A stretch of DNA of 63,514 nucleotides, filler included, from Rhabdomonas costata (lineage: Eukaryota), in assembly GCA_019059605.1 (NCBI GenBank). It is 50 parts of 50 records of this genome, joined end to end, with 100 filler letters (N's around TTAATTAATTAA, not from the genome) between each part and the next. Parts side by side here need not be neighbours in the genome. Positions count along the whole stretch, not along the records: positions 21,637 to 22,807 come from JAHMHO010025105.1; 49 more parts are not named here. One strand, given 5' to 3'. The position numbers and the translations under genes were made by a program. The number at the start of each line of letters is the position of its first letter. Positions within the stretch are counted from its first letter, which is position 1. The notes under the pieces were generated by a model. That model searched no databases. It had not been told where the DNA came from and saw only the letters and a list, made by a program, of their open reading frames with translations. Positions 5,545 through 22,807 of the stretch are shown piece by piece.

Positions 5545-6715
5545 GTATGGCCAGCCCAGTCCCCCCGAAGCTCAACCGCCTTCCTCCAAAGCTTTGGCTA
5601 GCGCTGAAACACCATCCGCTCCAATATTGAAGACAGCTGGCTTCTATTGGTTAAACTCCTCAGCGAAACTGGTCTTCCGTTGAGTTAAGTCAACATCGCG
5701 GGTTTTTTTTGGCAGAAGAGCGATAATTCGAGAATGGTTATCACGGCGCTGCAGCACAGGCACATTTTGTAACGGCTGTGATTCGGTGCAGAACAGACAA
5801 TTTACAAGCAGAAAGCCAGAAAAGAGTGTGATGACTCCAAGAGAAGCCCGTAAGCTGTCCCTCTGTCTCCTCTGCCTGCCTGATTCCCGCGTGCGCTTTT
5901 TATGGATTTGGGGCACAGAGAGGTCTGCATCTGCATCACGATAGAGGCTCTCATCCGTTTCCTCTGTATATTCTTCCTTCTTCCTTGTTCCTTCATTGGA
6001 TTCGAACGTTGATTCAAATTTCGGTGCCTCGAGAAGCCTTGGCCAAGTGGCATCACCTCCGCTCCCCATTCTGGGGTTCCGTCTGTTTGGTACCCCCACC
6101 CTACACACAATCCACACACACACACCATCCAGCGGCCTGGATAATGTGTGTGTGGGTCACCAAAGAGCTTAAACCCCCCATGCTGTCTTCTCCCGCCGCA
6201 TTTGCACGAAGGGTGAAATCCTTCCTGAGGTTCGACCAAACAACCCACACACACCCAACACNNNNNNNNNNNNNNNNNNNNNNNNNNNNNNNNNNNNNNN
6301 NNNNNTTAATTAATTAANNNNNNNNNNNNNNNNNNNNNNNNNNNNNNNNNNNNNNNNNNNNCTGTGTCCTTCAGAGTGACTGCGAAAAATCCCCCTCCTC
6401 TCCTCTCCTCGTTCACCCGCTCAGAATATGCGGTAGTTATTTCTGTCTTTGGTTCGCATATTTTTCCTCAGCAGGTTTTTGAGCTGTGCAGTGGCAGTAT
6501 CACCCTAACACAATGTTGTCACGGATTGTTGCACGTCAGCTGAAGCGGGTGCCCACAAGCCGGGCGATGCTGTTTGGGCTGCAATTCAGGTGCCCCCCCC
6601 TACCGTGGATGTTTTTCCACCATGGCTGATGCCCTCTTCTTCCTGCTCTCCTTTCGGGACTTCGTTCTGGCAGGTCAGACTTAGTATTTTTTTCCCTCAT
6701 TTTTTTTTCGCGAGC

Positions 6716-21636: not shown

Positions 21637-21911
21637 GTTTGTGTTACTCCTTCAGTCTTGGGCGTGATGTCCACCTCGTGCATGAACTGGCTGATGTGGC
21701 TCACGCGGCTTGCGAGCTGCTCCAGCACATCGGCCTCGGGCGAGTTGACCTGCAGGTCGTAGAGCTCGCCGTTGTCGTGAAGGCCCGCGACGTCGAGCGC
21801 TGCTTGCAGGATCTCCACCTTGAGGTCTTCGGGGATGGTGCGCAGGTCAACGAACCGCAGGCGTTCATTGCCGTAGCGTTCCTGGTGGATGGGATTGATG
21901 GGCTTGCTCAC
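21637..21911 (-). CDS. Prokaryotic/phage hypothetical protein, truncated by the contig end; translationally coupled to the small Arc-like gene
   Basis: GTG start overlaps the upstream TGA (GTGA); AAGGA Shine-Dalgarno-like motif just upstream; strong G/C third-position codon usage; no introns. Confidence 0.75.
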
Positions 21912-22069
21912 TGCTGGTTTCCTTTCTGGGCGAGAGCGCGTTCGACAGCGCGGACGATGAAGCTGTTCAAGCTGATGTGCTGCGTGTCGGCCCGCTCCTT
22001 GGCCTTGTCCTGGAGGACTTGCGGGATCCGCAAGGTGATCCGGGCTTGCTGCGCGGTCTGCTGGCTCAT
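21908..22069 (-). CDS. Small Arc-family ribbon-helix-helix DNA-binding protein (53 aa)
   Basis: MSQQTAQQARITLRIPQVLQDKAKERADTQHISLNSFIVRAVERAL fits the RHH pattern (beta strand xTLRxP, helix, SLN..I helix). AAGGAG lies at 22084-22079, 9 nt before the ATG. Confidence 0.88.
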   Translation of the reverse strand: MSQQTAQQARITLRIPQVLQDKAKERADTQHISLNSFIVRAVERALAQKGNQQ

Positions 22070-22088
22070 GCTTGATAGCTCCTTGTTA

Positions 22089-22168
22089 GACACTGTTTTG
22101 GTGTCGTGAGTGCATTGTGGATGTGACACAGTTTTGGTGTCAATGGTTTGTGACACTGTTTTGGTGGA
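22089..22168. promoter_or_regulatory. Three 17-bp operator-like dyad repeats (GACAC-N7-GTGTC)
   Basis: GACACTGTTTTGGTGTC at 22089-22105, GACACAGTTTTGGTGTC at 22125-22141 and GACACTGTTTTGGTGGA at 22152-22168, all within the 110-bp gap between two divergent regulator genes. Confidence 0.85.
22114..22143 (-). promoter_or_regulatory. Sigma70-type promoter for the small Arc-like operon
   Basis: On the minus strand, a perfect -35 TTGACA (22143-22138), an 18-nt spacer and -10 CACAAT (22119-22114), placed about 45 nt upstream of the ATG. Confidence 0.7.
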
Positions 22169-22179
22169 AAATTGCCGCC

Positions 22180-22656
22180 ATGAACGACGATGACCGCTAC
22201 ACCCGCATCACGCTGCGCCTCCCCAAAGACCTTCATCGCCGGCTGTCTGCACAAGCCGATTTGAAGTCTCACAGCCTCAACGCGGAGATCGTTGCAAACC
22301 TGGAATACGGCCTTCAGGCAGTGCAGCCGAAGGGTGAAGACGCCGAGGAGTTGCGCCACCTCCTCAAGGTCAATACGCTGCACGCCGAGTACCAAGCTCA
22401 TCTCACCCGCGCCATGCACTACGAAACGAGGCTCCAGATGATCGAGGACTCCATTGCCGAGGAGACGCGGCAGCTTCAGCGAGCCCAGAAGGAAGGGGAC
22501 ACAGCTGAGGCTGAGAGCATCCAGGAGCGTTTGGAGAAGTCGCGCTCCAAGATGATGGAAGGCCGCATTCAGGTGGCGAATGCGCGCGATATGGCCGCAG
22601 CTACCAAGCAAGCCATTACGGAGCTGCATCGAGACAATCTCAAAGGCGGCTCCTGA
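22180..22656 (+). CDS. Arc/Mnt-family RHH repressor with a long C-terminal coiled coil (158 aa)
   Basis: MNDDDRYTRITLRLPKDLHRRLSAQADLKSHSLNAEIVANLE is a typical Arc domain (LRLPxxL...SLNAEIV..LE). It is followed by a helical E/Q/A/R-rich region; G/C-biased codons. Confidence 0.9.
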   Translation: MNDDDRYTRITLRLPKDLHRRLSAQADLKSHSLNAEIVANLEYGLQAVQPKGEDAEELRHLLKVNTLHAEYQAHLTRAMHYETRLQMIEDSIAEETRQLQRAQKEGDTAEAESIQERLEKSRSKMMEGRIQVANARDMAAATKQAITELHRDNLKGGS

Positions 22657-22736
22657 GCGATACGACGTCCAGGGCACACGGCTCCGACTGATTCGGCGCC
22701 GGATGCCCAAAGAGTTTGGAGATGATGCGTGCTGCA

Positions 22737-22807
22737 TCACACACCCCTTCCGACCAGGCGCTCGGTCAGCGGACGCTCCTGGTACTCGCCGAAGGCCCCA
22801 CCAAACC
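22737..22807 (-). CDS. 3' end of a convergent prokaryotic-type gene (unknown)
   Basis: The frame ...AFGEYQERPLTERLVGRGV* has G/C-ending codons and runs in from the contig end to a TGA at 22739-22737. Confidence 0.4.

Follow-up and report, generated by a model that had tools for sequence, protein, structure and literature searches.

The 63.5-kb stretch of DNA analyzed here, referred to as the window, comprises 50 unrelated contigs of 1169-1175 bp each (G+C 0.45-0.60) from the Rhabdomonas costata assembly GCA_019059605.1, which are separated by N44-TTAATTAATTAA-N44 linkers; hence, neighboring positions across the linkers carry no meaning. One of these contigs, a single 1171-bp record (JAHMHO010025105.1; window positions 21637-22807; G+C 0.594), bears two divergent genes for ribbon-helix-helix (RHH) proteins of the Arc/Mnt family, separated by a 110-bp control region (22070..22179) that contains three operators and two back-to-back promoters. 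The reading that we favor, and hold to be likely, is that this region controls a secondary-immunity cassette of the type of the phage P22 immI region (mnt, arc-ant), in a temperate phage of a Comamonadaceae-type host, with a geometry resembling that of phage lambda. Given that the locus lies on an isolated contig, its native flanks are absent from the window, and its context was taken from related sequences elsewhere. Scans of genome, viral and metagenome contigs, the viral ones being from the IMG/VR collection and contributing many loci, recovered 75 related loci (cited below by L numbers), which together with the window contig make up 76 sources. A gene for the larger of the two RHH proteins is present in 75 of these sources, with at least 130 nt of upstream sequence in 72, and 54 loci are non-redundant at 90% upstream identity.

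The small RHH gene (22069..21908, minus strand) encodes 53 amino acids (aa) followed by a stop codon, is preceded by a Shine-Dalgarno sequence (AAGGAG), and would be the analog of arc. The large RHH gene (22180..22656, plus strand) encodes 158 aa followed by a stop codon and would be the analog of mnt, with an RHH domain in residues 1-48 and a predicted helical hairpin in residues 53-155. A preliminary description of this DNA had proposed just such a divergent pair across 110 bp, with the same ribbon, R-I-T-L-R-(I/L)-P, in both proteins; the coordinates and anatomy were confirmed, both proteins match curated RHH models, and the ribbons are R10-I-T-L-R14-I-P in the small protein and R9-I-T-L-R13-L-P in the large one. 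The small protein scores above the cut-off with the Pfam Arc model (E-value 1.2e-6; 28.7 bits, cut-off 20.4), the HicB model (27.8 bits, cut-off 21) and the NCBIfam YlcI_YnfO_N model (3.9e-9; 36.4 bits, cut-off 30), and also weakly matches HicB, CopG-antitoxin and TacA-like models. Its 42 homologs, from sources named Acidovorax, Simplicispira, Paracidovorax and Alcaligenaceae, share an invariant T12, L13 and R14, with R10 being present in at least 90% of them.

The large protein likewise matches the HicB model above the cut-off (5.1e-5; 23.5 bits, cut-off 21) and the Arc model below it (0.014; 15.7 bits, cut-off 20.4), and has only 6 full-length relatives. Large proteins with 98% and 92% identity to it are encoded on assemblies of 13 kb and 4.7 kb, respectively. 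Its gene is a rare accessory gene, genes of this type being found in 2 of the 301 sampled genomes of the order (E<=1e-12), one of which is the centre genome of the sample. Across 21 aligned large proteins the residues D5, R6, Y7, T8, R9, I10, T11, L12, R13 and P15, together with the helix-B motif, are invariant, and the portions beyond the RHH domain vary both in sequence and in length (71-244 aa). A profile of the same 21 proteins matches the solved pArc (3e-6), AmrZ (6.3e-5), Mnt (1e-3) and Arc (4.9e-3). In the AlphaFold2 (AF2) monomer model, computed with 7 sequences (mean predicted local distance difference test score, pLDDT, 79), the RHH helices span residues 16-26 and 32-48, the N-terminal strand region being of low confidence. 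What had been described earlier as a long coiled coil is modeled as a pair of extended helices (residues 53-105 and residues 108-155), which form the predicted hairpin with pLDDT >90 over most of its extent.

A model with four copies of the large protein obtained a score of 0.52, as against 0.19 for the best of 3 controls; the mark for this score is reached by 21/30 solved same-chain pairs and 0/23 single chains, and is a rough one, its calibration being for two copies. The four-copy runs, made without the custom alignment, share at least 76% of their contacts, with a partner pLDDT of at least 75. These contacts involve residues 5-19, through which two copies pair in the RHH manner, and the helix 54-91, the contact of lowest error being between residue 11 of one copy and residue 11 of the other. 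The strand-helix-helix topology with paired strands of two chains is thus predicted by the AF2 and four-copy models taken together, and the large protein is predicted to oligomerize, as had been proposed in the preliminary description; part of the four-copy result may come from likeness to RHH dimers, which are represented among solved structures. A structure search with the large-protein model returned generic coiled coils only, none at E<=0.001, and neither a domain search nor the AF2 model revealed a cleavage domain. Many large proteins (L004, L008, L009, L010, L019 and P0003) end in a basic proline tail, (K/R)KPKP, despite having unrelated C-termini; this tail may serve as a degradation or partner tag. 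The large protein of the window ends differently. In one metagenome locus (L063:266-700) an Arc-like RHH unit lies in-frame directly upstream of a large-type RHH unit, and the two may form a tandem two-RHH protein.

The control region contains three 18-nt repeats that start at 22086, 22122 and 22149 (spacings 36 and 27) and that, taken as dyads, correspond to three 17-bp operator sites. Site A (22089-22105) is a perfect dyad, GACAC-TGTTTTG-GTGTC, situated just downstream of the -10 element of the small-gene operon, at about +1 to +18. Site B (22125-22141) is also a perfect dyad, GACAC-AGTTTTG-GTGTC, and its outer arm contains the -35 element of the same promoter. Site C (22152-22168), GACAC-TGTTTTG-GTGGA, is imperfect in its right arm and overlaps a -10-like element of the large gene. 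The initial claim of three near-identical dyads thus holds for the repeats and for A and B, and was slightly generous with respect to C. The 15-mer GACACWGTTTTGGTG has 3 exact copies in the window, all inside the control region, and 5 matches in the 63.5-kb window at up to 2 mismatches, as against 0.49 expected, a number that was reached by 0/100 shuffles. With at most 1 mismatch allowed, the bare dyad GACAC-N7-GTGTC does not reach significance over the window as a whole: 5 matches are found against 1.77 expected, and 5/100 shuffles also reach 5.

Comparison with the related loci shows that this arrangement is conserved. At least three dyads occur within 130 nt of the large-gene ATG in 37 of the 45 non-redundant loci whose large protein has a YTRITLR-type ribbon (exactly three in 34), the mean in random 130-nt windows from those 45 loci being 0.04 sites. 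Within the 37 loci the dyad is perfect at site A in 29, at site B in 31 and at site C in none, the latter because the right arm of C is the -10-like hexamer of the large gene. The spacing between B and C is 26-28 bp in 32/37 loci, and that between A and B is looser (14-39 bp, mostly 33-37). The central 7 bp of the dyads are free to vary, even being inverted, across related loci, which suggests that the arms are the part that is read. The divergent pair with its triple sites is present in all 4 genome loci and is also found in viral and metagenome loci.

The two promoters differ in quality. That of the small-gene operon (22114..22143, minus strand) consists of TTGACA (22143-22138), an 18-nt spacer and CACAAT (ending at 22114); with 10/12 matches it is the sole sigma-70-type site called by the promoter scan, 0.2 being expected from shuffles. 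Its TTGACA coincides with site B in 35/37 loci, and site A lies over the start region. On the plus strand, a -10-like hexamer, GAAAAT (22167..22172), is found 7 nt before the large-gene ATG, with a poor -35 and no Shine-Dalgarno sequence. A hexamer of this kind lies 5-9 nt (mostly 6-7) ahead of the large-gene ATG in 43/54 loci, as against 10.2 on average and at most 19 over 300 shuffles, and 3-13 loci in other 5-nt distance bins. A Shine-Dalgarno core precedes the large gene in 4/54 loci and is absent in the other 50. A search for a large-gene promoter with a good -35 upstream of site C found none, and the promoter scan calls only the leftward one. Taken together, the pattern suggests that the large-gene mRNA is probably leaderless, being transcribed from a promoter with a weak -35 that abuts site B. 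The lambda promoter PRM, with the second and third sites of the right operator (OR2 and OR3), is of the same design, having a poor -35 that abuts the middle site, and the cI mRNA transcribed from it is leaderless.

The ribbon of the large protein and the form of the operators vary together. The YTRITLR ribbon goes with GACAC-N7-GTGTC sites, YQR[IV]NLR with GACAG..CTGTC-type sites (3 loci: L034, L045 and L069), YRRFNLR with GGCAC-N7-GTGCC (4 loci: L042, L067, L070 and L071), and VSIRM with GTGCGCC-type repeats (L072-L075; the non-redundant set includes only L073 and L074 of these, in which a scan for the canonical dyad found almost nothing). As judged from this co-occurrence of ribbon variants with different sites, the large protein is an operator-binding repressor, in line with the role first suggested for it, and across the 54 loci the constant unit is, by the same sequence comparisons, its N-terminal domain together with the triple sites. 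Large proteins with the motif DNYTRITLRMP (L062, L064 and L065), in which N replaces R two residues before the ribbon tyrosine, are accompanied by a different, shorter palindrome, CACCAAATTGGTG, within the upstream 130 nt; hence, a residue outside the classic reading triad also seems to matter for the site. A residue-to-base code for the half-sites was considered on the basis of the ribbon classes and rejected, the data being too few and the loci related.

A natural exchange within the large gene is evident from comparison of the window with the metagenome locus L024. Identity is 258/270 in the third gene, which follows the small gene, 160/162 in the small gene, 109/110 in the intergenic region and 36/39 over codons 1-13 of the large gene, that is, 96-99% on the left side and 92% in those 13 codons, and then drops to 57% (47/82). 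The junction lies at 22213..22219 (~22215), right after the ribbon codons, suggesting that the ribbon, the operators and the small gene are inherited as one block, with the rest of the large gene being exchangeable. A study of RHH hybrids (PMC3413123) describes the ribbon as a portable specificity element whose positions 2, 4 and 6 contact bases, the helical scaffold as setting the preference for box spacing, and Arc/Mnt ribbon swaps as changing binding specificity. That work concerns engineered proteins (ParG/CopG/MetJ and Arc/Mnt hybrids; PMC3413123), whose modularity is matched here by a natural junction after the ribbon codons; the present data consist of natural variation only.

The genes that follow the small RHH gene and the wider setting of the related loci indicate the kind of element in which the pair resides. 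The third gene (21637..21911, minus strand) is the second gene of the small-gene operon; its GTG start at 21911 overlaps the stop of the small gene (GTGA), and 91 codons are visible before it is cut at the contig end. Its product has no family in Pfam, NCBIfam or PADLOC, a best match of 0.056 in PHROGs, and no usable match in the protein atlas. In L024 this gene is complete with 91 aa, and the operon runs from the small RHH gene through the 91-aa gene to a gene for a 270-aa Bro-N protein (8.5e-14), with the stop of each gene overlapping the start of the next, the ATG of the Bro-N gene included. Homologs of the third gene have 87 aa in L001 and 86 aa in L003; it is absent from many related operons, in which an antirepressor-type gene comes directly after the small RHH gene. 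Elsewhere the small gene is followed by genes with AntA (7.9e-18), Bro-N (3.5e-24, 1.2e-19 and 1.5e-19), ORF6N (1.4e-19) and P22_AR_N (7e-41) domains; one downstream gene is weakly Rha-like (Phage_pRha 4.1e-5, below the cut-off), with a homolog that matches the PHROG anti-repressor Ant (6.4e-6). A wider sample comprised 99 open reading frames (ORFs) from 43 loci, located downstream of the gene that diverges from the large one, be it the small RHH gene or another, and tallied per ORF rather than per locus; all of its leading families are antirepressor-type, with 28 matches to N-terminal families of this type, namely Rha (8), Bro-N (7), P22_AR_N (4), AntA (3), KilA-N (3) and ORF6N (3), along with 8 matches to the KilAC/ANT domain. 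In several loci the antirepressor-type gene is followed or replaced by a further recurrent gene of the operon, whose product is of unknown family and rich in Pro, Ala and Thr at its N-terminus (L001:9348-10070; L009:6844-7575; L003:9327-; L004:8262-9128).

The surroundings of the cassette in relatives are those of a prophage, which was one of the contexts envisaged at the outset. In L001 one strand carries, in this order, genes for a primase-helicase, for a protein with an HTH_36 domain and for a protein resembling CII (Phage_CP76, 2.6e-12); the opposite strand encodes a CI-type protein with a helix-turn-helix (HTH) domain and a Peptidase_S24 domain (7.3e-21). Two unknown genes and then the cassette follow, the CI and CII genes being ~2 kb away from it. 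At ~4.5 kb beyond the cassette there is an integrase-like gene, whose Phage_integrase match (1.2e-5; 25.6 bits) falls narrowly short of the 27.1-bit cut-off. At the same place as the CI-type gene of L001, L002 encodes an S24 repressor-like protein (1.5e-14) and L004 an HTH protein. An RHH partner diverges from the large gene in 46 of the 54 non-redundant loci, by a hand tally.

Given the above observations, the following mechanism can be envisaged. The large protein, as the Mnt analog, would recognize the arms of the three GACAC-N7-GTGTC dyads by means of its N-terminal RHH domain, with two RHH dimers per dyad that are probably joined by the C-terminal helical hairpin. Each 17-bp dyad, in which 12 bp separate one half-site from the other, is of a size that fits two dimers, as is the case for Arc and Mnt. 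By occupying A and B, which cover the start region and the -35, the large protein would keep the leftward operon off in the lysogen, and by occupying the imperfect site C, over its own -10, it would limit itself at high concentration. The promoter-proximal half of B is at about -41 from the large-gene start and, more speculatively, could stimulate that promoter in the manner of lambda CI at OR2. The small protein, as the Arc analog, if it acts on the same boxes, would dampen expression of the operon that it heads once a burst has occurred, and would also turn off the large gene. The Bro-N protein, by extrapolation from P22 only, might counteract the CI-type main repressor of the phage.

Comparison with two well-known phage systems clarifies the affinities of the locus, which represents a P22 immI variant rather than a new kind of system. 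In P22 (PMC11016777, PMC8022706), Mnt is the repressor of both arc and ant; mnt itself is inhibited by Arc, which also has a moderating effect on ant, and the Ant protein binds to the C2 repressor. The present locus shares with immI the two divergent genes for Arc/Mnt-family RHH proteins, the placement of the small RHH gene at the head of an operon with an antirepressor-type gene (here seen in relatives), a larger RHH protein with a C-terminal oligomerization part (here predicted), and the location of the cassette apart from the primary CI-type immunity region (again seen in relatives). It differs in having one kind of operator in three copies and matched ribbons in both proteins, a C-terminal domain of the large protein that is much longer and highly variable, and an extra 91-aa gene. 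Further, a Bro-N domain (from L024) takes the place of P22_AR_N, the latter being found in 4/99 downstream ORFs of related loci, and the large gene is seemingly leaderless. There is also neither evidence nor room for a sar-like antisense RNA, no match to the known RNA families of Rfam being found at E<=1 and the overlapping adjacent genes leaving no intergenic space. With lambda OR the locus has in common the three operators between back-to-back promoters, two strong sites on the promoter that is silenced, the weakest site on the promoter of the repressor itself, whose poor -35 abuts the middle site, and a repressor mRNA that probably starts at the ATG. Unlike lambda, it uses the RHH rather than the HTH fold, its large protein is devoid of a RecA-sensitive cleavage domain, and it controls an antirepressor cassette in place of early lytic genes, with the CI-type repressor being encoded elsewhere in related prophages.

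One question regarding the proposed mechanism is whether the small protein of the window pair reads the same sites as the large one, and here the evidence is almost evenly balanced, with at most a slight lean in favor. In the window pair the ribbons are the same, and the RHH domains have 43% identity across 37 residues; the large ribbon is matched throughout the small-protein family to which the window protein belongs, and inspection by eye of the intergenic regions of loci with this family showed no second conserved repeat. At some loci the two partners also change together, with asparagine replacing threonine at -2 in L034, L045 and L069, which have one partner family, and serine or glycine replacing arginine at -4 in L073 and L074, which have another. 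The contrary explanation, a division of labor as in P22, where Arc and Mnt use the separate operators Oarc and Omnt, is that the large protein alone uses the three dyads and that the small protein has another or narrower target, such as site A or an unrecognized site, or acts mainly through a protein contact. In its favor, R-x-T-x-R is the ribbon that relatives of the small protein have most often (59 of 141 profile matches, in a sample biased towards it by the inclusion of the ribbon in the profile), and this background frequency weakens the argument from the shared ribbon. The expectation that ribbon residues would vary with the triple repeats in divergent pairs was borne out for the large ribbon; for the partners, a hand tally of 46 pairs has the same reading triad in 25, glutamine for threonine in 8 and a different triad in 13. 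Among the YTRITLR-type loci with an RHH partner, the triad is common to both proteins in 22/37; in 8 the partner has glutamine at -2, and in 7 its triad is another one (for example SMMLR, KVMLR or AKFHL) in the presence of ordinary sites. In the YRRFNLR class the counterpart of the large-protein asparagine is still threonine in 3/4 partners, and the loci with coordinated changes are close kin, so that they represent few independent events. In all 5 loci of one glutamine-type partner family (L013, L015, L044, L049 and L061) site A alone has the form GACAT-A[TG]AAATG-GTGTC, B and C being as usual, which hints at a separate preference on the part of the small protein at site A. The findings of PMC3413123 are also consistent with separate targets, in that Arc/Mnt ribbon swaps alter binding specificity and that the preferred spacing depends on the helical scaffold, the scaffolds of the small and large proteins not being the same. 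The identity of the ribbons across the window's small-protein family, the lack of another conserved repeat seen in its loci and the paired substitutions stand against this division, and we consider it rather unlikely, though of appreciable weight.

Two further explanations concern the role of the locus as a whole. The preliminary description regarded it as the primary lysis-lysogeny switch, with the two proteins as CI and Cro analogs on an RHH fold competing for three operators. The layout of lambda OR is indeed present, with two strong sites on the small-operon promoter, a weaker one on that of the large gene, and a large gene that, like cI transcribed from PRM, is seemingly leaderless; the identical ribbons of the window pair and the partial co-variation of the two ribbons are also compatible with such a switch. 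It is the primary role that does not stand: relatives carry a CI-type HTH-S24 repressor that faces CII-like and replication genes ~2 kb away (with the S24 and HTH proteins of L002 and L004 in the same place), and hence the pair is not likely to be the primary CI/Cro analog of the element. Since the small gene heads an operon of antirepressor-type genes, rather than early lytic or replication genes, the design is that of P22 immI, a system that the preliminary description had brought in for contrast only; with a large protein devoid of a cleavage domain and some loci devoid of a small RHH gene, the primary-switch reading appears decidedly improbable. A toxin-antitoxin or plasmid partition or copy-control locus, named beforehand as an alternative that would displace the switch, would have the small HicB/YlcI-like protein as antitoxin or centromere binder, the 91-aa protein as its partner and the repeats as operator or centromere. 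The weak matches of the small protein to HicB, CopG-antitoxin and TacA-like models, the matches of both the small and large proteins to PHROG families labeled 'partition protein ATPase', and the overlap of the small-gene stop with the next start are in keeping with it. Against this, the 91-aa protein has neither a toxin nor any other family in the Pfam, NCBIfam, PHROGs and PADLOC searches, its gene is missing from many related operons in which an antirepressor-type gene directly follows the small RHH gene, and the context is that of a prophage, with many loci coming from viral contigs. Further, the contig DNA has no match in 72,556 plasmid records or in the phage collection, and a tblastn search with the large protein found none in plasmids and one weak match in phages, to an Arc-like protein of a Paracoccus phage (43% identity over 51 residues). 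This alternative is accordingly barely credible.

Several points also weigh against the secondary-immunity cassette that we favor. The window contig ends before the Bro-N gene, the presence of which is drawn from L024 (96-99% identity to the left of the junction); it is by annotation that Bro-N, Rha and KilA-N proteins are called antirepressors, few members having been experimentally tested; and in the three loci checked singly (L004, L009 and L012) the first sizeable downstream gene had no family match. Of the 54 non-redundant loci, 7 are without an RHH partner and 1 is unclear. The leaderless promoter, too, is recognized from a pattern in the sequence, and went uncalled by the scan owing to its poor -35. 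The loci with a large-type RHH gene and two or three sites and no small RHH partner are represented by L021/L022:7228-7911, L047, L050, L054, L055 and L059; in such loci the divergent gene encodes an HNH endonuclease or an unrelated protein of at least 84 aa (mostly >100), and the large protein is short (71-91 aa).

On the far side of the large gene, the contig contains the C-terminal 22 codons and stop of a convergent gene (22737..22807, minus strand), which is cut at the contig end and is a neighbor rather than a member of the switch. It is conserved and of unknown function, without a Pfam family, and has a full length of 198-199 aa in several relatives (L024:3729-4325; L001:6779-7378), where it is convergent to the large RHH gene. 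In L003, an additional protein of the Arc family (194 aa), whose ribbon is not the same, is encoded ~1.5 kb from the cassette (5947-6531, minus strand).

A more far-reaching proposal, which we advance tentatively and hold to be somewhat doubtful, is that these loci form an uncharacterized and widespread family that is a true RHH version of lambda OR. Mnt-like and Arc-like proteins with matched ribbons would compete for three graded operators, with the maintenance repressor being translated from a leaderless mRNA, its synthesis boosted through the middle site and restrained by the repressor itself at the weak third one; the cassette of ribbon, operators and small gene would be exchanged between phages as a unit, and the at least four classes of ribbon and operator would amount to immunity types. 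The literature search, made mostly at the level of listings, found no functional study of YlcI/YnfO-like small RHH proteins and no published description of this family or of an Arc/Mnt-type pair that shares operators. If the proposal is true, the locus would represent a second, structurally unrelated case of the three-operator logic of lambda, on the Arc/Mnt fold, and would reveal the wiring of antirepressor cassettes in phages beyond the P22 group. The recognition code of RHH proteins is named as an open question in PMC3413123, and the natural series of ribbons and operators (YTRITLR with GACAC, YQR[IV]NLR with GACAG, YRRFNLR with GGCAC and VSIRM with GTGCGCC) offers material for such a code. 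The locus also points to a likely role for members of the YlcI/YnfO-like family of small RHH proteins.

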